A DNA stretch of 64,000 nt, from the NCBI GenBank assembly GCA_022823865.1, contig JAJEHF010000002.1:34731-98730 (forward strand), read 5' to 3'. The notes below the pieces were generated by a model. The model was given only the letters and a program-made list of their open reading frames with translations. It was not told where the DNA came from and made no database searches. Below, piece after piece: positions 2,733-42,560 of this stretch (its first letter is position 1; each line of letters starts with the position of its first letter). Position numbers and translations under genes: made by a program. Source of the DNA: Bryobacterales bacterium (GTDB lineage: Bacteria > Acidobacteriota > Terriglobia > Bryobacterales > UBA6623).

Positions 2733-2919
2733 TCCGCGGACCTGCACAGCGGCGAATGCGCGCGAGAGCGCTGACCGCGCTGCGCCGGCGCTGGTGCGCG
2801 ACAGCGTGCGTGCAGCCGGCGCTCTCACAACGCTCAGGTCACCACGCCCCGCCGGCCTCCTGACGGGACCCGGCCCGAAGCCCGCCTCCTGCGAGAATGA
2901 ATCACGGCAACGGTCAAAC

Positions 2920-5058
2920 ATGCCTCGACACGCCTACCTGGGATCCCTCGCATTGATACTCTGCCTCGCCGGAGCCTCTGCGCCCAGCGCCAGCGCCGGA
3001 CCCGTCTCGGGCACCGATCTGCTTGGATCCTCCGAGAACACGAGCGACTGGCTGATGTATGGCCGCGACTACCACGCGCATCGTTACGTCGAACTCGACC
3101 AGATCACGCCGGATAACGTCGACCGGCTGCACCCGGCCTGGGTGTTCGCCACCGGCGGCGAGAATCGCGGCCTGCAAGCCACGCCGTTGATCCATGAGGG
3201 AGTGCTGTACCTCTCCGCGGACGGCTCGCGCGTGTTCGCGATCGACGCCAGAACGGGTGCCAAGAAGTGGGGTTACGATCCCGAGCTGTCTTCCGAGAGC
3301 GAGCGAGTCTACTGCTGCGGCTCGATCAATCGCGGCGTGGCCCTACTGGGCGATCTCGTTTACGTCGGAACGATGGACGCGCGCCTCGTTGCCCTCGACA
3401 AGCAGACCGGAGAAGTCGCCTGGGAGACACAGGTGATCGACTGGCGACAGGGCTACAGCATCACGGGCGCGCCCTTGGTGGTCAAGGACATGGTCCTCAC
3501 GGGTGTCGCCGGCGGCGAGTTCGGAATCCGCGGTTTCGTGAAGGCGTTCGACGCCAGCTCAGGTGAGCTGCGGTGGACGGCGTACACCATCCCGGGTCCG
3601 GGCGAGCCAGGCAACGAGACCTGGCCCGGGGACACGTGGAAGCACGGCGGGGCGCCAACTTGGACCACGGGCGTCTACGATCCGAACCTGGACCTGGTCT
3701 ACTGGAACACCGGCAACGCGGCGCCGTGGAACTGCCAGGTCCGCAAGGGCGACAATCAATGGTCGGCAGCCACGGTCGCGCTCAGGGCGGACAGCGGCGA
3801 GATCGCCTGGGGCTTCCAGTACACGCCGTGGGACTGCTGGGATTACGACGCAGTCAGCACGCCGGTGCTGGCCGACCTCGAGCTTGAGCGGCACGGGCCC
3901 GTCAAGGCCCTGTTCCATCACGACAAGAACGGATTCTTCTACGCCCTGGATCGCACCAACGGAAAGTTCCTCTATGGCGAGCCGATCGTGCCCGGCATCA
4001 CCTGGGCGCGGGGCTTGGACCCGGAGACCGGCCGACCGATCGTCAATCCAGACATGGTGGCCGAGTCGGGCGGGCCGGAGGTCGGCCCGATCATCCCCAG
4101 CCTGGAGGGCGCCATCGACTGGCAGCCGCTGTCCTACGACCCCGAACTCAAGGTCCTGTACTTCATGTCCAACCAATGGGCTATGGGCTACAAGTTCTGG
4201 GAGGAAGGCACGTTCCAGCCTCCGACGAACGGCGAGTGGTACTTGGGCGCGGACTACCAGCAATACCTGACCACCGACGAGCCCGGCAATTTCCTTGCCT
4301 TCGACGTCGTGGAACGCAAGATCCTGTGGCGCCAGACCAGCCCAGCGCCGTTCTGGGCCGGATCGGTGGCGACCTCTAGCGGCTTGGTCTTCACCGGCGA
4401 CATGCGGGGCTATTTCATGGCCCTGGACGCACGCACGGGCGACGTGCTGTGGCAATTCCAGACCGGCTCGGGAATCATCGGAAGCCCGATCACCTACGAA
4501 CTCGACGGGATCCAATACGTGGCCGTGCCGTCCGGGGGCATCGGCGGCGACATGACCTTCTATTACACCGAGCCGCGCGCGGGGAACCTTTGGGTGTTCG
4601 CGCTGGACGGCGGCGGCCCCGCGCAGGTGGCCCCCGGCACGAACCTCACCACGCTCGAGGGCGGACTGCCGTACGTGGGCGAGCCGGGCCACACGCTGGG
4701 CGGCCGCGTCCTGGCCGGCTATGGCTTCGAGCCGACCGAAGGGGGAGAACCGATCCAGACATCCGGCCCGCCGCAGCCGTGGTCAGCCGAAGCGGCGGCA
4801 GCGGCAGATCTTGGCGGATCCTTGGAATCCCCGGAGGACCTGCAGCGAGTGACCTCGGTTTTTCGAGCCCGCTGCATCGGCTGCCACAAGGTAGGCGGGG
4901 GCAGCGGGCCGAACCTGTTCCGCACCAGGCTCTCTCCGGGCGAGTTTGTCGCGCGGGTGCTTCAGGGCGGCAACGGCATGCCGACATTTCAAGACGTCTT
5001 GAGCGACCGGGACATCCTCGAGATCCACGCGCTCGTCGCCGCGCGGGACCGGCCCTGA
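2920..5058 (+). CDS. quinohaemoprotein PQQ-dependent alcohol dehydrogenase (methanol/ethanol family with C-terminal cytochrome c domain)
   Basis: ORF 2794..5058 trimmed to ATG 2920 (signal MPRHAYLGSLALILCLAGASAPSASA). It has propeller W-motifs, the vicinal disulfide VYCCGSINRG, the active-site stretch WDCWDYDAV and the C-terminal haem site CIGCH. Confidence 0.9.
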   Translation: MPRHAYLGSLALILCLAGASAPSASAGPVSGTDLLGSSENTSDWLMYGRDYHAHRYVELDQITPDNVDRLHPAWVFATGGENRGLQATPLIHEGVLYLSADGSRVFAIDARTGAKKWGYDPELSSESERVYCCGSINRGVALLGDLVYVGTMDARLVALDKQTGEVAWETQVIDWRQGYSITGAPLVVKDMVLTGVAGGEFGIRGFVKAFDASSGELRWTAYTIPGPGEPGNETWPGDTWKHGGAPTWTTGVYDPNLDLVYWNTGNAAPWNCQVRKGDNQWSAATVALRADSGEIAWGFQYTPWDCWDYDAVSTPVLADLELERHGPVKALFHHDKNGFFYALDRTNGKFLYGEPIVPGITWARGLDPETGRPIVNPDMVAESGGPEVGPIIPSLEGAIDWQPLSYDPELKVLYFMSNQWAMGYKFWEEGTFQPPTNGEWYLGADYQQYLTTDEPGNFLAFDVVERKILWRQTSPAPFWAGSVATSSGLVFTGDMRGYFMALDARTGDVLWQFQTGSGIIGSPITYELDGIQYVAVPSGGIGGDMTFYYTEPRAGNLWVFALDGGGPAQVAPGTNLTTLEGGLPYVGEPGHTLGGRVLAGYGFEPTEGGEPIQTSGPPQPWSAEAAAAADLGGSLESPEDLQRVTSVFRARCIGCHKVGGGSGPNLFRTRLSPGEFVARVLQGGNGMPTFQDVLSDRDILEIHALVAARDRP

Positions 5059-9663: not shown

Positions 9664-10677
9664 TTGAGCAAGGCATCGATCGTCGTCAGCCAAGGCATCC
9701 AAACCCTGTGCGGCACGCGGGACGAGAACCTCCGCCTGCTGGAGAGCTCGCTGGGAGTCTCGGCCCACATCTCTGCTGGGAGCCTTGAGATCGAAGGCGA
9801 CGAGCAGCAGGTCCGCCGAGCGGACGACATTATCGCGGACTACCTGACGCTGCTGGGCGAGGGCCACCGCTTCAGCAACGGGGACATGCGCTCGTTCCTG
9901 CGCGTGGCTATCGCGGATCCCGATATCAGCTTCAAGGGGCTGGTGCAGAACAGTCGGCGGCGTCTGTGCGGCCGCAAGTCCGTCACGCCGCGCAGTCTCA
10001 ACCAACTGCGCTACTTCGAGGCAATGGATCGCTCGGACATGGTCTTCGGCATCGGCCCGGCCGGCACCGGAAAGACCTACCTGGCCGTGGCCTACGCGAT
10101 CTCCGCGCTGCTGGCCAAGGACGTGCGCCGCATCGTCCTCGCCCGCCCCGCAGTGGAGGCCGGCGAGAGGCTGGGCTTCCTGCCCGGCACGCTGCAGCAG
10201 AAGGTGGATCCCTACTTGCGCCCGCTGTATGACGCCCTGCATGACCTGCTCGAGGCCGAAAGGGTCGAGCGCAACCTCGCGAGCGGCATCATCGAAGTGG
10301 CGCCGCTGGCGTTCATGCGTGGCCGCTCGCTGAATGAGAGCTTCATCATCCTGGACGAAGCCCAGAACGCCACCGCCGAGCAGATGAAGATGTTCATCAC
10401 GCGGCTGGGCTTCGGCTCCAAGGCCGCGATCACGGGTGACATCACCCAGATCGATCTGCCCCCCGGCAAGCGCAGCGGACTGATCGAGGCGATCGACGTG
10501 CTCGCGGACGTGAAGGGGGTCAAGTTCGTCCACTTCGACGAACAGGATGTCGTGCGGCACGGCTTGGTGCAGCGCATCATCCGCGCCTACGACCGCTATG
10601 GCTCCAAGCGATGGCACTCGGCGGCCGCGGCGCCGGACCGGGCCGCGGAGTACGTGCCCGGCCATGATCGAGACTGA
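9664..10677 (+). CDS. phoH: PhoH-like ATPase (YbeZ)
   Basis: Walker A GPAGTGKTYLAV, plus ARPAVEAGERLGFLPG and ILDEAQN. The start is TTG at 9664. Confidence 0.92.
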   Translation: MSKASIVVSQGIQTLCGTRDENLRLLESSLGVSAHISAGSLEIEGDEQQVRRADDIIADYLTLLGEGHRFSNGDMRSFLRVAIADPDISFKGLVQNSRRRLCGRKSVTPRSLNQLRYFEAMDRSDMVFGIGPAGTGKTYLAVAYAISALLAKDVRRIVLARPAVEAGERLGFLPGTLQQKVDPYLRPLYDALHDLLEAERVERNLASGIIEVAPLAFMRGRSLNESFIILDEAQNATAEQMKMFITRLGFGSKAAITGDITQIDLPPGKRSGLIEAIDVLADVKGVKFVHFDEQDVVRHGLVQRIIRAYDRYGSKRWHSAAAAPDRAAEYVPGHDRD

Positions 10678-27726: not shown

Positions 27727-27802
27727 GGGCGCGTAGCTCAATTGGTAGAGCAAGTGACTCTTAATCACTAGGTTCGGGGTTCGAGTCCCTGCGCGCTCAC
27801 CA
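27727..27802 (+). tRNA. tRNA-Lys (anticodon CUU), CCA encoded
   Basis: Hand-folded cloverleaf: acceptor GGGCGCG/CGCGCTC, D arm GCTC-AATTGGTA-GAGC, anticodon arm AGTGA-CTCTTAA-TCACT, T arm CGGGG-TTCGAGT-CCCTG, discriminator A, then CCA. Confidence 0.93.
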
Positions 27803-28032
27803 CTCCAAGATCGGGCAATGCGCGACCCGCTTGCGCTTCCACACGGCGGCCTGGCGCCCCTCCAGCGCATTGAAGCCACAACGCCATCGCAGCGTCGCCG
27901 GGCCGGCACGCGAGCGGCCTAGTGGCGCTTGCCCGATGGAGCGGGAATCCGTCCCGTTCACCAAGGCTTCGCGCCCGCCTGTAGCAAAATCCTATGGTTT
28001 CTCCACAGGTGCGCCTAAGCTGTTTAGCTCAA

Positions 28033-30471
28033 ATGTCATCCCTGTGCCTCCGCCTCCTAGCCGCCTCGGCTATAGCCATTCTTGCAATCCCCGGGTCGGC
28101 ACAGACGACGGGCACCCTTGCCGGAACCGTTTCGATGAAGGAGACGGGCAGCCCGATGCACGGCGCGAACGTGCTCATCGTCGAGCTGGGCCGCAGCATT
28201 CTCTCCGACGACGACGGAGGATTCGAATTCGACCGCGTTCCGCCCGGGACATACCATGTCGTTGCCCATCTGGACCACATCTTCACGGAAGCCGCAAAGA
28301 CCGTACAGGTAGAGTCCGGCCGCGCGGCATCGGTCGATTTCCTCCTTGCACTGGTCACCGACCGGTACGAAATCACAGTCACCGCGTCGGAGCTCCACGA
28401 GACGACTTTCGAGTCCTTCCAGGATGTCGAGTCTCTGGATGCCTATGACCTGGCCGAAGGAACGGCCATATCGCTGGGCGAGGCGCTGGACCACCAGGTC
28501 GGGACCGGAATCGCAAAGCGCAGCTTTGGCCCTGGCAGTTCGCGGCCGATCATCCGGGGATTCGACGGCGACCGCGTCCTAGTCATGGAGGACGGCATCA
28601 GCACCGGAACTCTGTCGTCACAGTCCGGCGACCACGGGGAAGTCGTGAACGTTGGGCAGCTGGCAAGACTTGAGATCGTGAAGGGGCCCGCGACGCTGTT
28701 GTACAGCGGCAACGCGATGGGAGGCACGGTCAATGCGATCAGCCGCCACCACGAGCATCACCCCCATCCACACGAAGGCTTTCGAGGATTCCTGTCGGGT
28801 TCAGGCGGGACTGCGAATGCGCTGGCGGGAGGGAATGCGGGCTTCGAACTCGGAGTCGGGAGGACGATGCTCTGGGGCCACGGCGGAGGGATTCGCACAG
28901 GAGATTACACGGCGGCGGGACAAGGCCAGATCTACAATTCCCGGTCGGAGCTCATGAACGGAGGGGGCGGGTTCGGCTGGTACGGGAAATCGATGTTCCT
29001 CACCGCTGAAGCGAGGGTCGACCGTGGCGACTCCGGAGTTCCCTTCGCTCAGGAGTTCCACGCGCACGGGCATGAGGAGGAGGACGACCACGACGACGAA
29101 GACGACGACCACAAAGAGGGCGAGGACGAAGACGAGGACGAAGATCACGACGAAGAGGAAGAAGATCACGAGGAGGAGGAGCTCGAGCGAGTCTCCCTCC
29201 AGAGCCGTCGCACAAGCTACCGGGTGACGTGGGGCCTGCAGAATCTCGATGGACCTGTCGAGAGCTTCGACCTCAAGCTGAGCTACGTCGACTGGAACCA
29301 TGACGAGATCGAGCACTTCGCGGATGGCGAGTCGGCTATCGGGACGATGTTCCACAACAATCGGTTCACCTATCGCGGGGTGTTCGAACAAAGACAGCGG
29401 GGACTGCTGTCGGGTCGGTTCGGCGTCTGGGGTGTTGACCGCGCCTACGAGGCCACGGGCGAGGAGGCACTCTCCCCGCCAGTCGACCAGAACGGGCTCG
29501 CATTCTTCGCCCTGGAAGAGCTGGACTTCGAACGATTCAAGATCCAGTTCGGGGGACGCATCGAGACACAGCGCTACAAGCCCGCGTACGCGGAACGCGA
29601 AGGCCACGACGAGGAAGAGGAAGAGGGAGGAGACCACGCCGAGGGCGACGAGGGCGAGGGCGAGGAGGAGGACCACCACGAAGAGCGGGAGCCTCCCGAT
29701 GCAGTCGATCGGGCCTTCACCGGAGGCTCGGCCGCGATCGGCATCCACGCCGATACCTGGCAGGGAGGGGCGTTCGTAGCCAACTTCGCCAGAAGCTTCC
29801 GCGCACCGTCGCTCGAGGAGCTGTACAACTTCGGACCACACGCCGGAAACAGGGCATTCGAGATCGGCAATCCCGGCCTGGCTGCCGAGACCGGAAACGG
29901 AATCGATGTCTCGTTGCGACACAACGAGGGCCGTGTCCGCGCCGAATTCAACGTCTTCTACTACGACTTCGACAACTTCATCTTCCCGTTCTCCACCGGC
30001 GAGCTGGTTGACGAGTTCCTAGAGATCGAGTACACGCAGCGCAACGCCCGTTTCACCGGCGCAGAAGCGAGCCTCGGGATCGACCTGAATGACGTTCTTC
30101 GCCTGAACCTCGGCATGGACTATGTCGATGCGAAGGACACCGATACCAACACGTACCTGCCTCGGATCCCGCCCTTGCGCGGGCGCATAGGCTTCGACCT
30201 TCGCAAGGGCGGCTTCCGCCTGTCCCCGGAATTTGTGATGGCAAGCGAACAGAGCCGGACGTTCACGGGCGAAACCGCGACACCCGGGTATACGGTCGTG
30301 AACCTCAAGGCCGCCTACACCGTCGCCCGCCAGCACTTGGCACACCAGTTCGCGGCCGAAGTGTTCAATATCGGGGACCAGCTCTACCGGAACCATTCGT
30401 CCTTCATCAAGGACCTGGCCCCTGAGATCGGTCGAGGCGTGCGGTTTACGTATACCGTGCGATTCTTCTGA
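28033..30471 (+). CDS. TonB-dependent receptor with N-terminal CarboxypepD_reg domain and His/Asp/Glu-rich insertions
   Basis: ATG 28033 gives signal MSSLCLRLLAASAIAILAIPGSAQ. It has a carboxypeptidase-regulatory-like fold (GTLAGTV...GTYHVVAHLDH), a plug (RPIIRGFDGDRVLVMEDG) and the terminal ...RFTYTVRFF. Acidic/His inserts lie at 28747-28776, 29059-29187 and 29593-29700. Confidence 0.88.
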   Translation: MSSLCLRLLAASAIAILAIPGSAQTTGTLAGTVSMKETGSPMHGANVLIVELGRSILSDDDGGFEFDRVPPGTYHVVAHLDHIFTEAAKTVQVESGRAASVDFLLALVTDRYEITVTASELHETTFESFQDVESLDAYDLAEGTAISLGEALDHQVGTGIAKRSFGPGSSRPIIRGFDGDRVLVMEDGISTGTLSSQSGDHGEVVNVGQLARLEIVKGPATLLYSGNAMGGTVNAISRHHEHHPHPHEGFRGFLSGSGGTANALAGGNAGFELGVGRTMLWGHGGGIRTGDYTAAGQGQIYNSRSELMNGGGGFGWYGKSMFLTAEARVDRGDSGVPFAQEFHAHGHEEEDDHDDEDDDHKEGEDEDEDEDHDEEEEDHEEEELERVSLQSRRTSYRVTWGLQNLDGPVESFDLKLSYVDWNHDEIEHFADGESAIGTMFHNNRFTYRGVFEQRQRGLLSGRFGVWGVDRAYEATGEEALSPPVDQNGLAFFALEELDFERFKIQFGGRIETQRYKPAYAEREGHDEEEEEGGDHAEGDEGEGEEEDHHEEREPPDAVDRAFTGGSAAIGIHADTWQGGAFVANFARSFRAPSLEELYNFGPHAGNRAFEIGNPGLAAETGNGIDVSLRHNEGRVRAEFNVFYYDFDNFIFPFSTGELVDEFLEIEYTQRNARFTGAEASLGIDLNDVLRLNLGMDYVDAKDTDTNTYLPRIPPLRGRIGFDLRKGGFRLSPEFVMASEQSRTFTGETATPGYTVVNLKAAYTVARQHLAHQFAAEVFNIGDQLYRNHSSFIKDLAPEIGRGVRFTYTVRFF

Positions 30472-31156: not shown

Positions 31157-32347
31157 ATGGCAACAAATCGAGGCGTTGCATATATTCGCCCCGGAGTCGT
31201 CGAAATCCAATCGATTGACTTTCCCAAGCTAGCGCTCGGGGATCGCAAGTGCGAGCACGGCGTGATCCTGCGGATCGTCTCCACCAATATCTGCGGCAGC
31301 GACCAACACATGGTCCGCGGTCGGACCACCGCACCGGAAGGACTCATCCTGGGTCACGAGATCACCGGCGAGGTGATCGAGGCCGGCCGCGATGTAGAGT
31401 TCATCTCCGTCGGCGACATCGTCTCGGTACCGTTCAACATCGCATGCGGACGTTGCCGCAACTGCAAGGGCGGGCTGACCGGCATCTGCCTCAACGTCAA
31501 TCCGGCCAGACCCGGCGCCGCATACGGCTACGTGGATATGGGCGGCTGGGTAGGCGGCCAGGCCGAGTACGTCATGGTCCCCTACGCCGACTTCAACCTG
31601 CTCAAGTTCCCTGACCGGGGCCAAGCCATGGAGAAGATCGGCGACTTGACGTTGCTTTCCGATATCTTCCCGACCGGCTACCACGGAGCGGTGACGGCGG
31701 GGGTGGGGCCGGGTTCGATCGTCTACGTCGCAGGCGGGGGGCCGGTCGGCCTAGCGAGCGCGCACGGCTGCCAGCTCCTCGGAGCGGCCTGCGTGATCGT
31801 TGGGGATATGATCCCCGAGCGGCTTGCCCAGGCGGCAAGCTTCGGCTGCGAGACCGTGGATCTGAGCAAGGACGCCTCGCTAGCGGAGCAGATCGAGCAG
31901 ATCGTGGGCGAGCCCGAAGTCGATTGCGGCGTGGACTGCGTGGGATTCGAGGCCCGCGGGCACGGCCGCGAAGCGGTTGTCGAGCGGCCTGCCACCGTGC
32001 TCAACGCGCTGATGGAGGTCACGCGGGCGGGCGGCGGCATCGGCATTCCGGGCCTGTACGTGACCGGAGATCCGGGCGGCGTCGACGACAACGCCAAGAT
32101 CGGCAACCTGGGCATTCGCATCGGCCTGGGGTGGGCCAAGTCCCACCACTTCATGACCGGCCAGTGCCCGGTGATGAAATACCACCGCCAGCTCATGCAG
32201 GCGATTCTGTACGGCAAGGCGTCTCCGGCCAAGGCGTGCAACGTCACCTACATCTCGCTGGACGAGGCTCCGCAAGGCTACAAGGACTTTGACAAGGGCG
32301 CGGCTCGGAAGTTCGTGATCGATCCGCACGCTCTAATCGCAGCCTGA
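31157..32347 (+). CDS. fdhA: glutathione-independent formaldehyde dehydrogenase (Zn-ADH family)
   Basis: AGGAGG lies 6 nt upstream of the ATG. NRGVAYIRPG...EHGVILRIVSTNICGSDQHMVRGRTTAPEGLILGHEITGEVIE closely matches the Pseudomonas FdhA N-terminus as I recall it. Confidence 0.85.
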   Translation: MATNRGVAYIRPGVVEIQSIDFPKLALGDRKCEHGVILRIVSTNICGSDQHMVRGRTTAPEGLILGHEITGEVIEAGRDVEFISVGDIVSVPFNIACGRCRNCKGGLTGICLNVNPARPGAAYGYVDMGGWVGGQAEYVMVPYADFNLLKFPDRGQAMEKIGDLTLLSDIFPTGYHGAVTAGVGPGSIVYVAGGGPVGLASAHGCQLLGAACVIVGDMIPERLAQAASFGCETVDLSKDASLAEQIEQIVGEPEVDCGVDCVGFEARGHGREAVVERPATVLNALMEVTRAGGGIGIPGLYVTGDPGGVDDNAKIGNLGIRIGLGWAKSHHFMTGQCPVMKYHRQLMQAILYGKASPAKACNVTYISLDEAPQGYKDFDKGAARKFVIDPHALIAA

Positions 32348-32394: not shown

Positions 32395-33336
32395 ATGCAA
32401 CAGAAAACCTCGCGGCGTCGGCTGCTTGCCGCAGCTGGGGCTGGCGCACTGGGTGCGGCATGTGCCCGGCCATCTTCGGAGGCTGAACCAATGTCAGCCG
32501 ATCCCGCCAGCGGGATCCGGCTGGGTGTTTCCACGTATTCGTACTGGCACTTCCTCGAGGAGAAGTACCCCATCGAGAACGTGATCGACCACGCGGCCGC
32601 GCTGGGTTTCGACGGCGTCGAGATCTTGCACCGCCAGATGGAGAACGAGACGCCCGAGTACATGAACGCGCTCAAGCGCCGCGCATGGGACGAAGGCTTG
32701 GACCTGATCATGCTCTCGATCCACCAAGATTTCGTCGATCCCAGCGCGGACAAGCGGCAGGAGGCCATCTCCCATACCAAGCACTGCATCGATCTGGCCC
32801 ATCAATTGGGTATCCCGGCAATCCGGCTCAACACCGGACGCTGGGGCACGATCAGGTCATTCGACGACCTGATGGCGGCCGATGGGAACGAACCAGCCCT
32901 CGAGGGGTACACCGACGAGGACGCCATCGGCTGGTGCGTGGACTCGATCCGCGAATGCCTGCCCCACGCCGCACAGGCCGGAGTCGTGATGGCCCTGGAG
33001 AACCACTGGGGGCTGTCCACGAAGGTCGACGTCCTCCTGCGCATCCACCGCGAGGTCGGCGATCCCTGGCTCGGCATCAACATGGATACGGGCAACTATG
33101 TCGGGGACCCGTACCCTCAAATGGAACAGCTCGCCCCGCACGCCAACATCGTGCAGGCCAAGACCTATCCGGGCGGCGGCGTCTGGTATACGCTCGACCT
33201 CGACTACCCGCGCATCGCCCAGATCCTGCGTGACGCCGGCTTCAAGGGCTATGTGTCGCTTGAAATGGAAGGCAACGCGCCGGCCGAGCAGGCGGTCGCG
33301 GAAAGCTTCGAAGTCCTGCGCGGAGCATTCGCCTAG
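32395..33336 (+). CDS. xylose-isomerase-like TIM-barrel protein (sugar phosphate isomerase/epimerase) with Tat signal
   Basis: [24 protein letters not shown] leader. AP_endonuc_2-type motifs (FDGVEI, ALENHWG, NMDTGN, VSLEMEG). Confidence 0.8.
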
Positions 33337-33621
33337 AGAGCGGCCATCGCTCGGTTGCTTCTCGTTGAAGGACCGGCCACCGAGCAGCCGGCCGCTCGAC
33401 ATTTGATCCCGTCTGGCGGCAGAGCATTAGCGGGTCGCGGCTGCGGGAGAGGTCGATCAGATAGACAGGCTGGGGCCTGGCGGGCCGGCCCGACAGCCAA
33501 GGGCGGGGCTACGAGCGACTATTTGCCCGGCAAAGGCGCCCACGGGCGTTCAGTCTCAATGCCGCGATGCGGGCCACGGCTTCGGCCTCGCACAGTCTGC
33601 TAGCCTTGATAGTCATTCGCC

Positions 33622-34413
33622 ATGCGGCTACTGACATCCATCGCACTGCTCGCGGTGATTCCGGCCATCCTCAGCGCTGCGCGGACCCACGAGACCAACC
33701 CTATGAGTTCGCCGGAGGACTTCGAGGAGGGCCGACGACTGTATCGCATCAACTGCGGGGTCTGCCACGGCATGGAGGGCAAGACTGGACGCGGCTCCCG
33801 CTTGGCGCGTCGCAGCTACCGCCATGGCAATGCCGATGCCGCCCTCTTCGACCTGATCGAAGGCGGAATCCCGGGCACGGACATGCCCGGACTGTGGCTT
33901 GACGAGGATGACATCTGGAGAATCCTCCTGTTCGTCCGCACGTTCGCGGAGAAAGCCAGCGAGGTCTGTAACGCGAGCGGCGACGCGGCCGCCGGAAAGC
34001 GCGTCTTCGACTCGCAGGGTTCGTGCCTGGCCTGCCACACCGTCGGGAGTCGCGGCGGCCGGCTCGGCCCGGACATGTCGTTCGCGGGCGTGCAGTACAC
34101 CGACCAGCAACTGCGCGATGCGCTGCTGGAGCCCTCGCGCGAGGTGACCGGCCGTTACGAGACCGCGAGACTTGTCACAGCGGAAGGCGAACGCGTCGAG
34201 GGTGTGGTGATGAACGAGAACAGCTACAACATCTTCGTCATGGACCGTTCCGAGAACATCCGGTCGTTCCGCAAAGCGGAGCTTCGATCGCTCGATCTCC
34301 CGGAGGAATCGCTGATGCCTGCCTATGGGGACCTGCTGAGCACTGCAGATCTCGAAAACCTGATCGCCTACCTGTGCTCGCTGCAGGGGCCGGCCGAGGA
34401 GGTCGCGCAGTGA
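33622..34413 (+). CDS. dihaem c-type cytochrome (Planctomycete/Verrucomicrobia-type haem-binding domain)
   Basis: Signal MRLLTSIALLAVIPAILSA. Two CxxCH sites (CGVCHGMEG and CLACHTVG). The stop overlaps the start of the downstream PQQ-ADH. Confidence 0.85.
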   Translation: MRLLTSIALLAVIPAILSAARTHETNPMSSPEDFEEGRRLYRINCGVCHGMEGKTGRGSRLARRSYRHGNADAALFDLIEGGIPGTDMPGLWLDEDDIWRILLFVRTFAEKASEVCNASGDAAAGKRVFDSQGSCLACHTVGSRGGRLGPDMSFAGVQYTDQQLRDALLEPSREVTGRYETARLVTAEGERVEGVVMNENSYNIFVMDRSENIRSFRKAELRSLDLPEESLMPAYGDLLSTADLENLIAYLCSLQGPAEEVAQ

Positions 34414-36023
34414 AGACCCTGCTATTGCGATGGATGCTCCCGTCGGCACTGCTCTGCGCCGCTGCCGCGGCGGGAGAGGTGACCTATCAGGACCTGCTGA
34501 ACGACCCGAACGTAGCATCCGACTGGCTGAACTATCACGGGGGTTACGCCGGGCACCGGCACAGCCTGCTGGACGAGGTGAACCGCTCGAACGTCGAGTC
34601 CCTGCGACTGCAGTGGGCCTTCCAGGAAAAGATCGCTGAGAAGTTCGAAGTCACGCCCATCGTCCATGACGGAATCATGTACATCACTGTCCCGCCAGGC
34701 GATGTCTACGCGCTAGACGCGGAGACCGGGGCCCGGCTGTGGCGGTATTCCAGGCGCCTGCCCGCCAAGCTGATCGCATGCTGCGGGCTCGTCAACCGCG
34801 GTCTGGCGATCCTGGGCGACCGGCTGTTCATGGCGACCCTGGACGCCTACACTATCGCGCTGGACCGCAAGACGGGGCGCCTGCTGTGGGAGACGGAACT
34901 GATCGATTACTCCCTAGGCTATTCGGGCACGCTCGCGCCCTTGGTGGTCAAGGACATGGTCATGGTCGGCACGGCCGGAGGCGAGTACGGCATCCGGGGG
35001 TTTATCGACGCCTTCGATGTCGAGACCGGAGAGCGCCGCTGGCGCTTCTACACCGTCCCGGGCCCGGGAGAGTTCGGCAACGACACTTGGTCCGGAGACT
35101 CGTGGAAGACTGGCGGGGCCTCGATCTGGATCACCCCCAGCTACGACCCCGAACTGAACCTCGTCTACTGGGGAGTGGGCAATCCGGGGCCGGACTGGAA
35201 CGGCGATGTGCGCCTGGGGGACAACCTGTTCTCGGATTCCGTGGTCGCCCTGGACGCGGACACCGGCAAGCGCAAGTGGCACTTCCAGTTCACCCCGCAT
35301 GACGTCCATGACTGGGACGCCACGCAAGTCATGGTGCTGATCGACCGGGAGTACCGAGGAGTGGAGCGCAAGCTGCTGGTGACCGCCAACCGGAACGGCT
35401 TCATCTACATGCTGGATCGCGAAACGGGCGAGTTTCTCAAGGCGACGCAATTCGTCAAGCAGACCTGGGCGGTCGGGATTTCCGAAGAAGGCCGACCGAT
35501 TCGGCGGCCGGGCATGGAGCCGAGCGCCGAGGGCATCGAGGTGTACCCGGCGGTGGCCGGCGGCACGAATTGGATGTCTCCTGCCTACAGTCCAGACACG
35601 GGCTTGCTGTACGTCTCTTGCCGCGAAGGCAGCAGCATGTACTTCAAGGGCGAGACCGAGTACCGGCCCGGCACCCGCTACTGGGGCAGCATGTTCGTCA
35701 ACGAGTCCACCATGGGCGAGTGGTACGGCGCTGTCCGGGCATTCCATCCGGTGACTGCCGAGAAGGTCTGGGAGCACAAGCTCTTCCAGCCGGTGTGGGC
35801 CGGATTGCTCTCCACGGCCGGCGGCTTGGTGTTTGCCGGAGGCAGCGGTGGCTTCTTCAAGGCGCTTGATTCCGAATCGGGCGAGGAGCTGTGGCGAATC
35901 AACCTCGGAGCGTCGATCCTTGCCAGCCCGATGACGTACGAGGTCAACGGCCGCCAGCTGGTTGCGGTTGCCTCCGGCGGCGGGATGTTCGTGTTCGCGC
36001 TGCCGCAAGAATCCGCGCCGTAG
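34410..36023 (+). CDS. PQQ-dependent alcohol dehydrogenase (methanol/ethanol family, no haem domain)
   Basis: GTG 34410 (GTGA overlap with the cytochrome c stop) gives signal VKTLLLRWMLPSALLCAAAAAG. DWLNYHGGYAGHRHS, the vicinal disulfide LIACCGLVNRG and the active-site stretch HDVHDWDAT. Confidence 0.9.
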   Translation: MKTLLLRWMLPSALLCAAAAAGEVTYQDLLNDPNVASDWLNYHGGYAGHRHSLLDEVNRSNVESLRLQWAFQEKIAEKFEVTPIVHDGIMYITVPPGDVYALDAETGARLWRYSRRLPAKLIACCGLVNRGLAILGDRLFMATLDAYTIALDRKTGRLLWETELIDYSLGYSGTLAPLVVKDMVMVGTAGGEYGIRGFIDAFDVETGERRWRFYTVPGPGEFGNDTWSGDSWKTGGASIWITPSYDPELNLVYWGVGNPGPDWNGDVRLGDNLFSDSVVALDADTGKRKWHFQFTPHDVHDWDATQVMVLIDREYRGVERKLLVTANRNGFIYMLDRETGEFLKATQFVKQTWAVGISEEGRPIRRPGMEPSAEGIEVYPAVAGGTNWMSPAYSPDTGLLYVSCREGSSMYFKGETEYRPGTRYWGSMFVNESTMGEWYGAVRAFHPVTAEKVWEHKLFQPVWAGLLSTAGGLVFAGGSGGFFKALDSESGEELWRINLGASILASPMTYEVNGRQLVAVASGGGMFVFALPQESAP

Positions 36024-36114
36024 AAGGCCCCGGAGTCCTGCGGTGGGTCGGCCAGGCGCCAGGGTTGGACACAGCAAGCGAGCAGTCGGGCCGCGGCCGC
36101 ACGGAGGTGAAGCG

Positions 36115-37419
36115 ATGAGCACCCGCAGGCAGACGACAGAGAACACCGATCTGGGCGCCGTCACCCGGCGCCGGATGGCGCGGGGAGTCGGCGCGGTCCT
36201 CGGATCCGCGGCGGTGATGCGGGAGTTGCGGGCGGAAGCGTTGGCGGCGCCTTCCGCGGCCGTTGCTCAGGCCGCGTCCGTGGGCTCCTACGACCCGGAC
36301 TGGCTGCCCCCGGGCGTGCGCTCGCGCTTCGTCCACGGCGTCAACGGGCTCACGATGCACGTGCTGGATGCCGGCTTCGAGACCGGCGGGCGCCCGGCTC
36401 TGCTGCTGCTGCACGGCTTCCCCGAGCTCGGCTACAGCTGGCGGCACGTGCTGGCGCCGCTGGCCGCGGCCGGCTATCACGTCATCGCGCCGGATCAGCG
36501 CGGCTACGGCCGCACCACCGGCTGGAGCGCGGACTACGACGGCGACCTGCGGCCGTTCAGCCGGATGAACGCCGTGCGCGACGCCCTCGCGCTGGTATGG
36601 GCGTTCGGCTACCGCACCGTGGACGCCGTCATCGGCCACGATTTCGGATCGCCGATCGCCGCCTGGTGCGCCGTGGCGCGGCCAGATGTGTTCCGGGCGG
36701 TGGCGCTGATGAGCGCCCCGTTCGGCGGCACGCCGACGTTTCCGTTCGGGACGGCTGACGACGGCCCGCGCGCCGCGCCGGCCGCCGAGCCGGACATCTA
36801 CGAGGAGCTGGCGCGCCTGCCCCGCCCGCGCAAGCACTACCAGCGCTACTACCGAACACGCGAGGCGAACCCCAACATGTGGCGCGCCCCGCAGGGCGTC
36901 CACGCGTTCCTGCGCGCCTACTACCACCACAAGAGCGCCGACTGGGCCGCGAACCGCCCGCACCGGCTGGCATCGTGGACGGCCGCCGAGGTCGCGCAGA
37001 TGCCGACCTACTACATCATGGACCTCGACATGGGCATGGCGGAGACTGTCGCCCGCGAGATGCCGACCGCGGCCGAGATCGCGGCCAACCGCTGGCTGCC
37101 CGACGACGAGCTGCGCGTCTACAGCACGGAGTACGAGCGCAACGGGTTCCAGGGCGGCCTGCAGTGGTACCGCTCCGGCGTGATCACGGACGAGCCGCTG
37201 ACCTTCGCCGGCCGCACGATCGACATCCCGTCGCTGTTCATCGGCGGCGCGAGCGACTGGGGCGTCTATCAGCGCCCGGGGGCGTTCGAGCGGATGCAGG
37301 AGAGCGCCTGCACCGACTTTCGCGGCGCGCACCTGCTCGACGGCGCCGGCCACTGGGTGCAGCAGGAGCGGCCCGAGGAGACCGTCCGCCTGCTGCTGGA
37401 GTTCCTGCGGGCAGCGTAG
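36115..37419 (+). CDS. alpha/beta hydrolase, epoxide-hydrolase-like, Tat-type leader
   Basis: ATG 36115 inside ORF 35962..37419. Leader TRRRMARGVGAVLGSAAV. LLLLHGFPELGYSWRH and the nucleophile elbow GHDFGS. Confidence 0.82.
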   Translation: MSTRRQTTENTDLGAVTRRRMARGVGAVLGSAAVMRELRAEALAAPSAAVAQAASVGSYDPDWLPPGVRSRFVHGVNGLTMHVLDAGFETGGRPALLLLHGFPELGYSWRHVLAPLAAAGYHVIAPDQRGYGRTTGWSADYDGDLRPFSRMNAVRDALALVWAFGYRTVDAVIGHDFGSPIAAWCAVARPDVFRAVALMSAPFGGTPTFPFGTADDGPRAAPAAEPDIYEELARLPRPRKHYQRYYRTREANPNMWRAPQGVHAFLRAYYHHKSADWAANRPHRLASWTAAEVAQMPTYYIMDLDMGMAETVAREMPTAAEIAANRWLPDDELRVYSTEYERNGFQGGLQWYRSGVITDEPLTFAGRTIDIPSLFIGGASDWGVYQRPGAFERMQESACTDFRGAHLLDGAGHWVQQERPEETVRLLLEFLRAA

Positions 37420-37443
37420 CCGCGCGCGTCACGGAGACGCCTG

Positions 37444-37590
37444 ATGAAGGAACGCGTATTCACTGGTCGATCGGTGGCTCTCGGCTCGGCGACCGGCACA
37501 GTCGTGTCGGTCATGCTCGGCGCGTTCGGCATAGATTGGGTGTTGGCGTGCACGACCGGGCTGGCCGCCGGTGCCTTCGTGCTGCCTTGA
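37444..37590 (+). CDS. unannotated 48-codon hydrophobic ORF (two TM-like segments)
   Basis: Below the ORF-track length cutoff. GGAG lies 7 nt upstream of ATG 37444. It translates as MKERVFTGRSVALGSATGTVVSVMLGAFGIDWVLACTTGLAAGAFVLP. Its TGA overlaps TTG 37587 of the next gene (TTGA). Confidence 0.4.
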   Translation: MKERVFTGRSVALGSATGTVVSVMLGAFGIDWVLACTTGLAAGAFVLP

Positions 37591-38048
37591 CGCCATCGAA
37601 AGCGCACACCCTGTCCCGAGTACAGCTAGCGATAAACGTGCCCGACCTCGACAAGGCGATCGCGTTCTACTCCCGCCTGTTCGACACCGCCCCCGCGAAG
37701 GTGAAGCCCGGCTACGCGAACTTCGCGATTGCCGATCCGCCACTGAAGCTGGTCCTGTTCGAGGGTCGAGAGGGAGCGACCCTCAACCACTTGGGCGTCG
37801 AGGTTGAGACGGCCGACGAGGTTGCGTCGGCCGAACGGCGCCTGCACCGGGCCGGGCTCGAGACGACCGGCGTCGAGGACACGATCTGCTGCTATGCAGA
37901 GAAGACGGAGACGTGGATGGCCGACCCCGACGGAGCCCGCTGGGAGTGGTACGTGAAGCCGGGAGACGTCGGGCAACTCCACCAGACGGCCGTCGGCCGC
38001 CGCTCGTCCTGCGCAGACGACAGCGCACCCGCAACCTGCTGCTCGTGA
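37587..38048 (+). CDS. ArsI/CadI-family VOC (glyoxalase-fold) metalloenzyme
   Basis: C-terminal part of ORF 36879..38048. SRVQLAINVPDLDKAIAFYSRLFDTAPAKVKPGYANFAIADPPLKLVLFE...LNHLGVEV and the vicinal Cys pair TICCYAEK. The start is uncertain (TTG 37587 or CTG 37611). Confidence 0.8.
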   Translation: MTPSKAHTLSRVQLAINVPDLDKAIAFYSRLFDTAPAKVKPGYANFAIADPPLKLVLFEGREGATLNHLGVEVETADEVASAERRLHRAGLETTGVEDTICCYAEKTETWMADPDGARWEWYVKPGDVGQLHQTAVGRRSSCADDSAPATCCS

Positions 38049-38061
38049 GCCCCGCGCGCCG

Positions 38062-38490
38062 CTACCGCAACGGGTTCTGCCACTCCAGACCATCAAACCG
38101 GGCGAAGTCACCATCGGTCGAGCAGAGAACGAGGCCGTGCTCGATGGCCAGAGCCGCCAGGTGGGCGTCGGGAACGAGATTCGCGCGGCCCTCCGCACTC
38201 GCCATGAGCGGAGCGAGCACATCCTGATGGCGCTCCGTCGGCAGTGGGACCCAGACCGACCGTGTCGCGAGCCATGACTCCACCTGCAGCCACGCGGTGG
38301 ACACCGCGGCGGGCCGATCGAAGATGCGCGGATTGCTGACAATCCGCACGAAGGCCAGCAGACTGGGCCACGGAATCCCCACGGGAGCGGCGGCATTGAT
38401 GCGGTCGTCCAACCACGTACGCGCCCGCTCGTGCTGCGGGAATGAAGCCACGTGCGCGTAGACGAGCAGGTTGGCGTCGACGAGGATCAC
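38062..38490 (-). CDS. vapC: PIN-domain toxin VapC
   Basis: GTG 38490 inside ORF 38062..38631. VILVDANLLVYAH ... PDAHLAALAIEHGLVLCSTDGDFARF. It has a 4-nt overlap with the upstream antitoxin. Confidence 0.85.
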   Translation of the reverse strand: MILVDANLLVYAHVASFPQHERARTWLDDRINAAAPVGIPWPSLLAFVRIVSNPRIFDRPAAVSTAWLQVESWLATRSVWVPLPTERHQDVLAPLMASAEGRANLVPDAHLAALAIEHGLVLCSTDGDFARFDGLEWQNPLR

Positions 38491-38735
38491 CGGAAATCCT
38501 CGCCTTCCGCGACGGCAAGTGCTTCGGCGACGTCGTCGAGGCTGCCAATCCGACAACGACCCAGATCCGCGGCCGGCGTCCTGTAGGCCGCCGGCTGGCC
38601 GGACGGAGCCGCCATGGCGCGCAGACCGCACCGCAGCGCCTCGTTCACGACCGCCTTGAAGCTCTGACCGCGCACCCGCTGCATTCGTTCGGCCAAGGCC
38701 GCCACGTCAGGGTCCAATGTCAATGTGGTACGCAT
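38487..38735 (-). CDS. vapB: VapB-type antitoxin
   Basis: 82 aa. The N-terminus MRTTLTLDPDVAALAERMQRVRGQSFKAVVNEALRCGL is typical of antitoxins paired with VapC. Confidence 0.8.
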   Translation of the reverse strand: MRTTLTLDPDVAALAERMQRVRGQSFKAVVNEALRCGLRAMAAPSGQPAAYRTPAADLGRCRIGSLDDVAEALAVAEGEDFR

Positions 38736-38736
38736 G

Positions 38737-38760
38737 CATCACATCATAGAAGATGTGATG
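38737..38760 (-). promoter_or_regulatory. candidate vapBC operator
   Basis: Perfect 9-bp inverted repeat CATCACATC-atagaa-GATGTGATG, starting 2 nt upstream of the vapB start codon. Confidence 0.5.
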
Positions 38761-38799
38761 TGTTGATGCTGATCGTTCGTGCCTGCTCACGCCGCGACC

Positions 38800-39074
38800 G
38801 CCTCGGCGCCGCCACGCTCGTGCCGCTCGCCAATGCCCGCGGGCAGGCCCTCGCCAACCGAATGCTTGCCCGCTCGGGCGGCAATCTCCTCTTCGAGAAA
38901 CAGGGCGTCCAGGGAGTGCCCACCTTCGCCGAAGCCGCCCAGTGCATGCTCGAACGGAAGCGCGACGGCTGGCGCAGTCGGTGGCATGCTCAGAACTGGT
39001 GGCGCAGCATGGAGCGGTACGTGTCCACTCGCGTCGGCAACCGACCCGTGTCCGAGGCGGATCGCGGAGCGTGA
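38800..39074 (+). pseudogene. tyrosine-integrase N-terminal fragment (remnant)
   Basis: ...ARGQALANRMLARSGGNLLFEKQGVQGVPTFAEAAQCMLERKRDGWRSRWHAQNWWRSMERYVSTRVGNRPVSEA matches the arm/SAM-like N-terminal region of phage-type integrases. It then stops, and no catalytic domain follows. Confidence 0.6.
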
Positions 39075-40548: not shown

Positions 40549-41248
40549 GCTGGCCGCCACCGTGCGCCTAGACCTCCGCCTGCAGATGCGGAACGGCTTC
40601 TACTATGCGGTGGCCTTCGTGTTGGCCTGCTGGTTCGTCGTGCTCACCCGCCTTCCCGCGATCGACTGGGGTTACGTGCTGCCTGCCGTCGTGTTTGGCA
40701 ACCTAGTGATGATCAACTTCTACTTCGTGGCCGGCCTCGTGCTGCTCGAGAAGGGCGAGGGGACGCTGGAGGCCCAAGTGGCGACGCCCCTCGCTAACTG
40801 GGAGTACCTGGCCTCGAAGACGCTGACGCTGGCCGCGCTCGCGGTAGTCGAGCAGCTGGTCATCGTCTGGTCTGCGTACGGAGGCGGATTCGCGGCCGGC
40901 CCACTGGTCGTCGGCGTAGTGCTGGCGGGCGTCCTGTACACGTTGACCGGCTTTCTCCTCGTCGCCCGCTACCGGTCGATCAACGAGTTCATGTTTCCCT
41001 CGGTCCTCTTCACGGCCGTTCTCTCGCTACCGCTGCTGCACTATTTCGGCCTCTGGAACGCCTGGCTGCTCTATCTCCATCCCTTCGCGGCGCCGCTCGT
41101 GCTGCTGGGCGGGGCGTTCCGGCCGATTGCGTCCTGGGAGTGGGCCTACGGCGTGCTGTACTCTGCCGCCTGGGCCGGGATGCTGCTGCTCGCCAGCCAG
41201 CGGTCCTTCGACCGCTTCATCGTCGCCCGGGAGGGGGTGGGGGGCTGA
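40541..41248 (+). CDS. ABC-2 type transporter permease
   Basis: 235 aa with about 6 TM segments. It overlaps the ATPase stop by 8 nt. Confidence 0.75.
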   Translation: MHRLAATVRLDLRLQMRNGFYYAVAFVLACWFVVLTRLPAIDWGYVLPAVVFGNLVMINFYFVAGLVLLEKGEGTLEAQVATPLANWEYLASKTLTLAALAVVEQLVIVWSAYGGGFAAGPLVVGVVLAGVLYTLTGFLLVARYRSINEFMFPSVLFTAVLSLPLLHYFGLWNAWLLYLHPFAAPLVLLGGAFRPIASWEWAYGVLYSAAWAGMLLLASQRSFDRFIVAREGVGG

Positions 41249-41988
41249 TGCCGACCGCCATCGCGGTGATCCGCGCGCTCGGCCCCATCGACGTCAAGAG
41301 CGTCGCCCGCGACAGCATGCTGCGCTGGATGATCGGCATACCGATCGTCCTCGCTCTCGTCTTCCGCTGGGGCGTACCTGCCCTCGACAGATGGCTCGGC
41401 GAGCGGTACGACTTCGACCTCACGCCGCACTACCCTCTCCTCAGCAGCTTCCTCATGCTGATGATCCCGACGCTGATTGGCGCGGTCGTCGGCTTCCTGC
41501 TGCTGGATCAACGCGACGATCACACGCTCACCGCGCTGCAGGTCACGCCCCTCACCGTGCAGGGGTACCTCGCCTACCGCATCGCTGTCCCGATGGCCGT
41601 CAGCGTGCCCGTTATGATGGCGAGTCTCGCCATCGCGAATCTGGTCGAAATGGGTGTCGTCATGGCCTTCGCCGCCACGGTCCAAGCGGCTCTCACTGCA
41701 CCGCTCTACGCGCTGTTCGTCGCCGCGTTCGCGGGCAACAAGGTCCAGGGGTTCGCCCTGCTCAAGGGCGCGGGGGTGCTCACGTGGCCACCGGTTTTCG
41801 CATGGTTCATCGCGTCGCCGTGGCAGGTAGCGATCGGGCTCGACCCGCTCTATTGGCCGCTCAAGCTCTTCTGGATGCTCGAGGCCAGCGAACCCCGCGT
41901 GGCCCTCTACTTTCTGGTCGGCTTGGGGTACCAAGGGATCCTGATCGCGCTCTTGCTGCGGCGCTTCAAGGCCGTGATTGCTCAATAG
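41248..41988 (+). CDS. ABC-2 type transporter permease (second subunit)
   Basis: ATG 41248 overlaps the upstream TGA (ctgATGcc). 246-aa polytopic protein inside ORF 41140..41988. Confidence 0.72.
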   Translation: MPTAIAVIRALGPIDVKSVARDSMLRWMIGIPIVLALVFRWGVPALDRWLGERYDFDLTPHYPLLSSFLMLMIPTLIGAVVGFLLLDQRDDHTLTALQVTPLTVQGYLAYRIAVPMAVSVPVMMASLAIANLVEMGVVMAFAATVQAALTAPLYALFVAAFAGNKVQGFALLKGAGVLTWPPVFAWFIASPWQVAIGLDPLYWPLKLFWMLEASEPRVALYFLVGLGYQGILIALLLRRFKAVIAQ

Positions 41989-42560
41989 CGGTGCGGCGTG
42001 CCGCGAGCTCTCGGCTGCTAGTGCGATCCAGGTGAGCGCACGTGTTGGGCCGGTCCACGTTACGCTAGCCTGCGGTCGGCTAACCGGCTACCAGGGGGCG
42101 CATCAAGTTGCCGACAGCCTTGCTCCACTCACGAGGCTCTACTTCGACGATCCTCATGCCACCGATGGACACGCTACAGATGACAACGTCGCCATCCAGC
42201 GTGCGGAGAATCGCGGGGCTATCCGCTAAGTCCCGGCGGTCTCCCCCGTCTTGGGATCAGACTCGGTCAGCCGAGATGACGCGAGGCTGTCGAAAGGCTC
42301 CGCCCCGAGAACCATTTCTGCTCGCGGCCTGCTAGATCTCTGGGCAGGCCCGCGGTGGGTTCGCTCCGGATCGCTCACCGACGCCGGACCTGAGCGAACC
42401 CGCATTCTACAGTCAGACTCCCGCGCCGGACCCGCTAGACTCCTGAAGGGCCGCTCCGTTCTCCCTGAAGAGCGCCTTCCAGGCGCGGACCATTGCACGA
42501 TTGCCTTCTATAAGTCAGCTACCGTGAGCGACTTGCGCGGCTAGCGCCGACGCGGCCGCG

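Follow-up and report, generated by a model that had tools for sequence, protein, structure and literature searches.

A gene for a dihaem c-type cytochrome and a gene for a dehydrogenase dependent on pyrroloquinoline quinone (PQQ), overlapping by four nucleotides (nt), make up a two-gene cassette which is conserved across several bacterial phyla. The pair is described here from a stretch of 64,000 nt of contig JAJEHF010000002.1 of a Bryobacterales bacterium, called the window in what follows. The window has a G+C content of ~65%, and its host is read as a soil-type, Bryobacterales-like member of the Acidobacteria. The parts of the cassette are of known kinds, and the dehydrogenase itself is a further member of a known enzyme kind; what is new is their conserved association. 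The cassette probably functions as a self-contained periplasmic oxidation module, in which a lanthanide-type PQQ dehydrogenase is served by the co-encoded dihaem cytochrome as electron acceptor. The domain matches of both genes are far beyond chance. Coordinates of the two genes, of their motifs and of neighbouring features are collected in Table 1.

Relatives of the dehydrogenase were searched in one genome per species. At least 598 were found, and the best 80 loci have been analyzed. The closest reside in Bryobacterales (86% and 84%), others in Vicinamibacterales, Terriglobia, Thermoanaerobaculia, Holophagales and Blastocatellia, as in Gemmatimonadota, a few Gammaproteobacteria and one Acidimicrobiia bin. 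At 76 of the 80 loci, which span at least four phyla, there is enough upstream DNA to place the cytochrome gene. The cytochrome gene is found directly upstream, on the same strand, at 67 of the 76, directly downstream at 3 (L046, L065, L066), and is not adjacent at 6 (L022, L030, L037, L039, L041, L044). Adjacency at these six was judged at the best-matching dehydrogenase copy; four have no open reading frame (ORF) with a CxxCH motif within 2.5 kb, and the only nearby CxxCH ORF at L030 belongs to a second cassette copy. When the neighbouring ORFs of 82 loci were clustered, only the cassette genes recurred (82 and 66 loci), no other family being found at more than 7; no third conserved partner, such as a XoxJ-like protein, an aldehyde dehydrogenase or a regulator, emerged from this clustering. 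A second cytochrome-dehydrogenase cassette lies a few kb from the first at L030 (10786-13216) and L045 (13245-15533), which suggests that the module was duplicated in tandem. L042 and L081 also have a further PQQ dehydrogenase copy nearby; no second cytochrome match was reported at these two loci.

In the window, the GTG start codon of the dehydrogenase and the TGA stop codon of the cytochrome share the tetranucleotide GTGA, as stated in a preliminary description of this DNA, and the overlap proved exact when its coordinates were checked. The junction reads ...GAGGAGGTCGCGCAGTGA, and a Shine-Dalgarno (SD)-like motif falls within the final codons of the cytochrome gene. Translation from the GTG yields the N-terminus VKTLLLRWMLPSALLCAAAAAGEV, which is signal-peptide-like. 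The start codon is the sole soft point of the gene calls. The program-made ORF list runs the dehydrogenase frame back to 34023, over part of the cytochrome gene, which is read in a different frame; in alignments, similarity to other dehydrogenases starts only past 34434. The GTG at 34410 is favoured because of the SD motif, the K2 and R7 residues of the signal peptide, and the NTGA junction kept in relatives. The ATG at 34434, located 20 nt past the cytochrome stop, is a possible alternative.

Junctions at the 67 loci with an upstream cytochrome were sorted by type. A 4-nt NTGA overlap is found at 45, a 1-nt overlap at 8 and some other overlap at 4; a gap of 0-20 nt separates the genes at 6 loci and a longer gap at 1, and a single fused ORF is found at 3. 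Stop and start overlap, in all, at 57/67 loci. Overlaps are favoured when the nearest start codon is taken, but this bias is offset by the excess of ATG among the chosen dehydrogenase starts (50/63), by the enrichment of SD-like motifs at positions -17..-4 (33/63 loci, vs 12.5 +/- 2.8 in shuffles), and by the signal-peptide-like N-termini, in which Lys or Arg occurs in residues 2-8 at 60/63 loci. The overlap would all but force co-transcription of the two genes, and the SD motif and the junction together suggest that their translation is coupled.

Shadow ORFs run over both genes at 33628-34518 (-), 34914-36164 (-) and 34739-35302 (+), and homologous ones are found in 3, 75 and 29 related loci, respectively. 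Their recurrence follows simply from the conservation of the real genes in DNA of high G+C content, and they were rejected as artefacts.

Natural fusions of the two proteins exist. P0048 and P0064, both from metagenomes, are ~770 amino acid (aa) proteins, 63-69% identical to the window enzyme, in which a signal peptide, a class I cytochrome domain, a TIGR02603 domain and the propeller follow one another, a short linker replacing the internal signal peptide. Contigs from three independent samples carry P0064 in identical form, and it is therefore not an assembly artefact. In addition to P0048 and P0064 (L083-L085), single ORFs are found at L038, L076 and L078, and fusions occur in at least 2 acidobacterial orders and in independent samples. 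The cytochrome is N-terminal in these proteins, the reverse of the order featured by known quinohaemoproteins, in which it is C-terminal. Because adjacency is conserved, the junction is of the coupling type and fusion is recurrent, comparative evidence argues strongly that the cytochrome would be the dedicated partner of the dehydrogenase. The preliminary description had spoken of a stoichiometric redox pair. The pair stands, as gene order and overlap are conserved across phyla and natural fusions exist; the term stoichiometric, drawn from the gene layout, was too strong, and a 1:1 ratio may be assumed with some backing from the fusions.

The cytochrome might instead share only an operon with the dehydrogenase, and serve another periplasmic enzyme or a terminal oxidase. 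Its role as acceptor is predicted from sequence, the six loci without an adjacent cytochrome fit such a separation, and Kustd1711, its closest solved relative, is encoded in a nitrite oxidoreductase cluster rather than in a PQQ cluster (PMC11791136). This arrangement is nonetheless very improbable, as single-chain fusions recur in different orders, and adjacency and overlap are conserved across phyla while all other neighbours vary.

The cytochrome features two different haem domains. Residues 33-105 match the Pfam family Cytochrome_CBB3 (E 1.7e-18), and make a class I domain. Residues 120-253 match positions 1-133 of the 134 of TIGR02603 (92.4 bits, cut-off 68.15), the putative haem-binding domain of the Pirellula/Verrucomicrobium type. 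Scores obtained with the cytochrome cL model TIGR03872 (35.7 bits, cut-off 147.8) and with the cytochrome c550 PedF model TIGR04494 (25.1 bits, cut-off 122) are below threshold. Exactly two CxxCH motifs are present in 118/118 cytochrome homologues. A search of 1.84 billion representative proteins returned 218 cytochrome clusters (50% identity, E <= 1e-30); nearly all members measure 240-300 aa and match over the full length, and a few are long, as one of 783 aa.

An AlphaFold2 (AF2) model of the cytochrome, built from 45 homologues, has a predicted local distance difference test (pLDDT) score of 86. Its best whole-chain fold match is Kustd1711 (E 4e-13, 274 columns), a protein of the anammox organism Kuenenia (Protein Data Bank, PDB, 7ZS0), which is also matched in sequence (E 2e-17), is ~24% identical and is the one solved relative of the C-terminal domain. 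Both proteins have two cytochrome c domains, a Hfq-like nose in the second domain and an aligned distal Met, and Hfq structures are found among the Foldseek matches of the nose region. In Kustd1711 the nose domain has been described, the distal ligands are methionines (M292 in the crystal structure), both haems are His/Met ligated with potentials of about +350 mV, and a Ca2+ ion 6.9 A from each haem iron, held by backbone carbonyls and a haem propionate, raises the potential (PMC11791136). Both haems of the window cytochrome are predicted to be His/Met ligated as well, and the modelled protein, with its two domains, the Hfq-like insertion and the predicted ligands, is a Kustd1711-like dihaem cytochrome. 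The two differ in genetic context, Kustd1711 being part of a nitrite oxidoreductase cluster. Single-domain fold matches (~83 columns) were obtained with cytochrome cL (7C90, root mean square deviation 1.4 A, 28% identity) and cytochrome c551i (2MTA chain C). They agree with the sequence matches of the N-terminal haem domain, which is predicted to be a class I domain remotely similar to cytochrome cL. The earlier assignment to the Planctomycete/Verrucomicrobia haem type rather than to classical cytochrome cL is borne out by the TIGR02603 domain and by the failure of the cL and PedF models, and has to be nuanced for the N-terminal domain, which is of class I and has cL and c551i among its nearest single-domain structures.

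The dehydrogenase matches the Pfam PQQ propeller domain (E 5e-90), and passes the methanol/ethanol family model TIGR03075 (596.4 bits, cut-off 480.05) over positions 3-529 of 530. No XoxF-, PedH- or ExaF-specific NCBIfam model was matched. Best among PDB sequences is the lanthanide enzyme PedH (E 2e-126, 426 bits), followed by the quinohaemoprotein ADH-IIB (371 bits), ExaA (344 bits), XoxF SolV (343 bits) and MxaF-type enzymes (~285 bits). The AF2 model is an all-beta propeller (pLDDT 77, predicted template modelling score 0.83). PedH is the best Foldseek match as well, with a template modelling (TM) score of 0.82 and 36% identity, and PQQ dehydrogenases make up the whole of the top 30 PDB matches (TM ~0.8). 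The modelled fold is that of an eight-bladed PQQ propeller. The 537-aa chain ends with the propeller, and lacks the C-terminal cytochrome domain featured by type II quinohaemoproteins.

TIGR04528, the 'acido-empty-quinoprotein group A', is a high-scoring, full-length relative from the same phylum. Membership in this group was rejected on score, since the window enzyme obtains 513.7 bits against a cut-off of 650, and ten members of its clade score 512-557 bits, all under the same cut-off. The clade is accordingly a near neighbour or sister group of TIGR04528, not part of it.

The metal site is that of lanthanide enzymes at all positions compared. Residues were counted along the alignment with the 4MAE chain, and this count reproduces the published XoxF SolV ligands Glu172, Asn256, Asp299 and Asp301. 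The diagnostic column reads D-F-D in PedH and D-Y-D in XoxF SolV, both lanthanide enzymes, and D-F-S in ExaA and D-F-T in ADH-IIB, both calcium enzymes; the window dehydrogenase has D-W-D, and is predicted to be of the lanthanide type. The residue preceding the ligand Glu tells the same enzymes apart, being Gly (G-G-E) in the window protein, PedH and XoxF, Asp (G-D-E) in ExaA and Ala (G-A-E) in ADH-IIB. The D-x-D assignment made in the preliminary description, which failure of the alignment would have undone, holds column for column with PedH and XoxF SolV, and conservation extends to the three further metal ligands and to the PQQ contacts. The HDVHDWDAT segment, with gac tgg gac at the position given, and the vicinal Cys-Cys of LIACCGL are likewise present as described. 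Such vicinal cysteines form the PQQ-stacking disulphide of methanol/ethanol-family PQQ dehydrogenases.

Motif conservation at loci L003-L082 is by construction, because the genome scan was run with the pattern PHD[VTE]HDWD, which holds the motif. Conservation was therefore counted among hits of a word-based protein search made without use of the motif, and D-[WY]-D was found in 120/120 best homologues. The full ligand set of lanthanide enzymes in the active site makes it most likely, as far as residues can tell, that the dehydrogenase works with PQQ and a light lanthanide. None of the lanthanide PQQ enzymes characterised to date can do without the extra Asp (PMC11996626, PMC10875860), and biochemically confirmed lanthanide use is confined to XoxF clades and the PedH/ExaF group (PMC11996626).

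Some points weigh against the lanthanide-type, cytochrome-coupled module. Outside XoxF and PedH/ExaF, D-x-D is an imperfect predictor, as membrane glucose dehydrogenase has the motif and is a Ca/Mg enzyme (PMC11996626). No biochemically characterised member of the dehydrogenase clade was found in the searchable literature, and no gene for PQQ synthesis, PQQ import or lanthanide uptake is recognisable in the window. Confidence in the AF2 model drops (pLDDT <50) in the active-site loops 125-127, 259-270 and 298-303, where C124-C125, N258 and D301-D303 are located. To these points are to be added the loci in which the cytochrome gene is downstream or not adjacent, and the confinement to close relatives of the linkage to the formaldehyde dehydrogenase gene discussed below.

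The same motif-bearing glucose dehydrogenase, the heterogeneity of metal cofactors reported within families (PMC11996626), the lack of lanthanide-handling genes in the window and of a characterised clade member in the searchable literature would all suit an enzyme which is calcium-dependent or metal-promiscuous. The second Asp would then be a trait of the clade, and the cassette would encode an ordinary Ca/PQQ alcohol dehydrogenase with its cytochrome. We regard this as unlikely, since the four ligand positions match those of lanthanide enzymes, G-G-E is shared with PedH and XoxF and not with ExaA and ADH-IIB, PedH is the nearest solved relative by sequence and fold, and the motif is found in all 120 homologues.

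A different question is whether the enzyme is supplied with its cofactor. It could be an 'empty' quinoprotein in vivo, inactive in a host that makes no PQQ unless PQQ is scavenged from neighbours. Proximity to the 'acido-empty-quinoprotein group A' and the lack of pqq genes in the window hint in this direction, and PQQ scavenging is common, those Acidobacteria that encode PqqU being without PQQ synthesis (PMC12124388). On the other hand, the TIGR04528 cut-off is failed, the pqq negative covers the window, and residues E80, R130, T174, W240, R328, N387 and W463 align with the PQQ contacts of XoxF and PedH. Among twelve clade members both these contacts and the vicinal Cys vary little or not at all, and the protein is thus built to hold PQQ. 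An empty enzyme is a tentative proposal, held with more doubt than belief; it concerns cofactor supply and is compatible with the oxidation module.

The module would operate as follows. Cytochrome and dehydrogenase would be made from one mRNA by coupled translation, because the dehydrogenase start lies inside the cytochrome stop, behind an SD motif, and both would be exported by their own signal peptides. The dehydrogenase, loaded with PQQ and a light lanthanide, would oxidise an alcohol, possibly an aldehyde. The dihaem cytochrome would take the two electrons of reduced PQQ in single steps, and pass them to the aerobic respiratory chain. The nearest clue to which haem domain may dock at the propeller is the similarity of the N-terminal one to cL and c551i, which are acceptors of other quinoproteins. 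The use of lanthanide over calcium, the direction and partner of electron transfer, the 1:1 stoichiometry and the substrate are inferred.

The cassette resembles known PQQ dehydrogenase systems, and differs from each. PedH/ExaF (PDB 6ZCV/6ZCW) share with the window enzyme the eight-bladed propeller, the vicinal Cys-Cys, the G-G-E, Asn and D-x-D ligands and a periplasmic signal peptide. The window enzyme is, however, only ~36% identical, is ~60 residues shorter and has no NCBIfam equivalog; the partner of PedH/ExaF is a small monohaem c550 (PedF/ExaB), in contrast to the 263-aa dihaem cytochrome found here. In the XoxF-XoxG system the four metal ligands align, a c-type cytochrome gene adjoins the dehydrogenase gene, and cytochrome cL is remotely like the N-terminal haem domain of the window cytochrome both in sequence and structure. 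Similarity to XoxF is lower than to PedH (343 vs 426 bits), and the XoxF neighbourhood, made by xoxG of the cL type and xoxJ, is not found, as the cL model is failed and no XoxJ emerged from the neighbours of the 82 loci clustered. The window cytochrome has, moreover, a second haem domain, and its gene precedes that of the dehydrogenase, whose start it overlaps. Type II quinohaemoproteins (ADH-IIB, 1KV9; ADH-IIG, 1YIQ; qhEDH, 1KB0) are strong matches, similarly carry electrons from a PQQ propeller to covalent haem c, and find a counterpart in the single-chain quinohaemoproteins among relatives of the window enzyme. Their haem is in one C-terminal monohaem domain and their metal is Ca (D-F-T in ADH-IIB), whereas the haem protein of the cassette is separate, or N-terminally fused in relatives, and has two haems.

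The substrate has been considered in the light of the upstream genes. A gene for FdhA, the glutathione-independent formaldehyde dehydrogenase, is two genes upstream of the cassette, followed by a gene for a TIM-barrel protein. Synteny of these two genes with the cassette is limited to the closest Bryobacterales relatives (L001-L004). Close relatives (~85% identity) keep the genes for SurA, an OB/HD protein, a short-chain dehydrogenase/reductase (SDR), the TonB-dependent receptor, FdhA, the TIM barrel, the cytochrome and the dehydrogenase, and share the same 4-nt overlap. At distant loci the cassette is found in other contexts, as in one with mandelate-racemase-family and Asp/Glu racemase genes. 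The gap 5' of the cytochrome gene measures 285 nt, and is not conserved among the closest relatives; a weak hairpin is found at 33338-33352. The gap holds no known RNA element, since the only Rfam match in the whole window is the tRNA-Lys at 27727, and in a scan for promoter and terminator consensus sequences counts were not above those of shuffled sequence.

The upstream fdhA hints, with low confidence, at oxidation of methanol to formaldehyde and then formate in the Bryobacterales-like lineage. One could go further and see in the cassette a dedicated methanol dehydrogenase system, an analogue of XoxF-XoxG feeding FdhA, rather than a broad alcohol/aldehyde enzyme. The bona fide fdhA, kept in place in the closest relatives, and the strong matches to XoxF structures speak for it. 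None of the more distant loci shows linkage to FdhA, PedH and ADH-IIB outscore XoxF and MxaF, no XoxJ-like gene was found at the 82 loci clustered, and the cassette is set apart from the upstream genes by the 285-nt gap and the hairpin; a dedicated methanol system is therefore rather unlikely, somewhat less so than calcium dependence. The link to methanol is weak because FdhA linkage is limited, the gap is not conserved and contexts elsewhere are unrelated. A broad alcohol/aldehyde role is taken as the default, and a role in methanol oxidation is considered possible for this lineage specifically.

Eight-bladed enzymes commonly have a monohaem cytochrome encoded beside them, and dihaem c4 cytochromes are discussed only for six-bladed ones (bioRxiv 10.64898/2026.07.10.737718). 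A dihaem partner for dehydrogenases of the present type was not found described, in a literature search that fell short of most subscription papers, and nothing relevant on dihaem/quinohaemoprotein combinations came out of the literature searches. It is conceivable, though less likely than not, that the pair stands for a large, phylum-spanning class of lanthanide-type quinoproteins, having a Kustd1711-type dihaem outlet either coupled or N-terminally fused, and wired to FdhA in the Bryobacterales-like lineage. If so, it would add a fourth architecture of electron output to PQQ alcohol dehydrogenases, the other three being a separate monohaem cL/c550, C-terminal monohaem fusions and a membrane trihaem subunit. 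It would also provide Acidobacteria, which are among the most abundant soil bacteria, with a way from methanol to formate that depends on lanthanides and not on XoxF. Surveys predict many lanthanide-type PQQ enzymes in Acidobacteria, and substrate and acceptor are known for almost none; the specific dihaem cytochrome of this clade, sometimes fused, names an acceptor for enzyme assays. The natural single-chain fusion lends itself to structural studies of electron passage from PQQ to haem, and the pair is a compact two-gene marker for the annotation of metagenomes. The current picture of lanthanide biochemistry is left unchanged.

Table 1. Features of the cassette and of its surroundings in the window
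Feature	Position	Strand	Remarks
Dihaem c-type cytochrome gene, 263 aa	33622..34413	+	signal peptide; N-terminal class I and C-terminal TIGR02603-type haem domains
Haem 1 motif CGVCH (C45, C48, H49)	33754..33768	+	invariant columns in 45 homologues
Predicted distal ligand M88 of haem 1, in GTDMPG	33883-33885	+	invariant in 45 homologues
Haem 2 motif CLACH (C135, C138, H139)	34024..34038	+	invariant columns in 45 homologues
Beta-strand 'nose' insertion, Hfq/Sm-like, in second haem domain	34162..34296	+	AF2 strands in residues 181-225
Predicted distal ligand M232 of haem 2, in SLMP	34315-34317	+	M232 and P233 invariant; aligns with Kustd1711 M292
Shine-Dalgarno-like GGAGG	34398..34402	+	in last codons of cytochrome gene, 7 nt 5' of dehydrogenase GTG
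GTGA overlap	34410..34413	+	dehydrogenase start GTG 34410-34412, cytochrome stop TGA 34411-34413
PQQ-dependent dehydrogenase gene, 537 aa, methanol/ethanol family	34410..36023	+	signal peptide, residues 1-22
Vicinal Cys124-Cys125	34779..34784	+	invariant in clade; aligns with CC of PedH, ExaA, ADH-IIB, XoxF
Glu192, metal ligand by alignment, in AGGEYG	34983..34985	+	XoxF SolV Glu172; invariant in clade
Asn258, metal ligand by alignment	35181..35183	+	XoxF SolV Asn256; invariant in clade
Asp301-Trp-Asp303	35310..35318	+	catalytic metal-binding Asp and lanthanide-specific Asp; XoxF D299/D301, PedH D-F-D
Second D-x-D PQQ dehydrogenase	2794..5058	+	D-Y-D at 3841-3849; vicinal Cys-Cys; C-terminal cytochrome c domain (CIGCH)
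tRNA-Lys(CTT)	27727-27802	+	Rfam
TonB-dependent receptor, N-terminal carboxypeptidase-regulatory-like domain	27994-30471	+	position conserved in close relatives
FdhA, glutathione-independent formaldehyde dehydrogenase	31157..32347	+	TIGR02819, 733.9 bits, cut-off 636.95; two genes upstream of the cassette
Xylose-isomerase-like TIM-barrel protein, twin-arginine-like N-terminus	32395..33336	+	PF01261, E 1.9e-37

A second PQQ dehydrogenase with the D-x-D motif is encoded in the window, and is 44% identical to the cassette enzyme. Its true start is likely near 2920, at MPRHAYLGSLALILCLAG. It has the classical C-terminal layout of type II quinohaemoproteins, but differs from them in carrying the lanthanide-type Asp. 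The preliminary description was correct in reporting two D-x-D enzymes of different architecture, one with a fused haem domain, and overstated how remarkable their presence in one acidobacterial window is, as up to 70 predicted lanthanide PQQ enzymes are found per genome (PMC11996626). Lanthanide PQQ dehydrogenases are predicted to be very common in Acidobacteria and Gemmatimonadota; 14/17 families mostly have the motif, and 15 eight-bladed lanthanide-type clades have been found in weathered rock (PMC11996626; PMC10875860; bioRxiv 10.64898/2026.07.10.737718). Two such genes in the window are ordinary because these enzymes are predicted to be common in these phyla.

The TonB-dependent receptor was considered as a PQQ or lanthanide importer. 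The candidate was rejected, as the nearest family and structure are those of the zinc receptor ZnuD, matched well below cut-off, and not PqqU. Long ORFs at 60520-63981 (-), 9373-10665 (-) and 41127-42035 (+), of 1153, 430 and 302 aa, had no Pfam match at the thresholds used, and are at most putative genes. The region 3' of the dehydrogenase (36115-39071, G+C 0.709) departs from the synteny of L001/L002. It encodes an alpha/beta hydrolase with a Tat-like leader, a glyoxalase/VOC protein, a PIN-VapB toxin-antitoxin pair and a phage-type integrase fragment, and appears to be what remains of an inserted mobile element.

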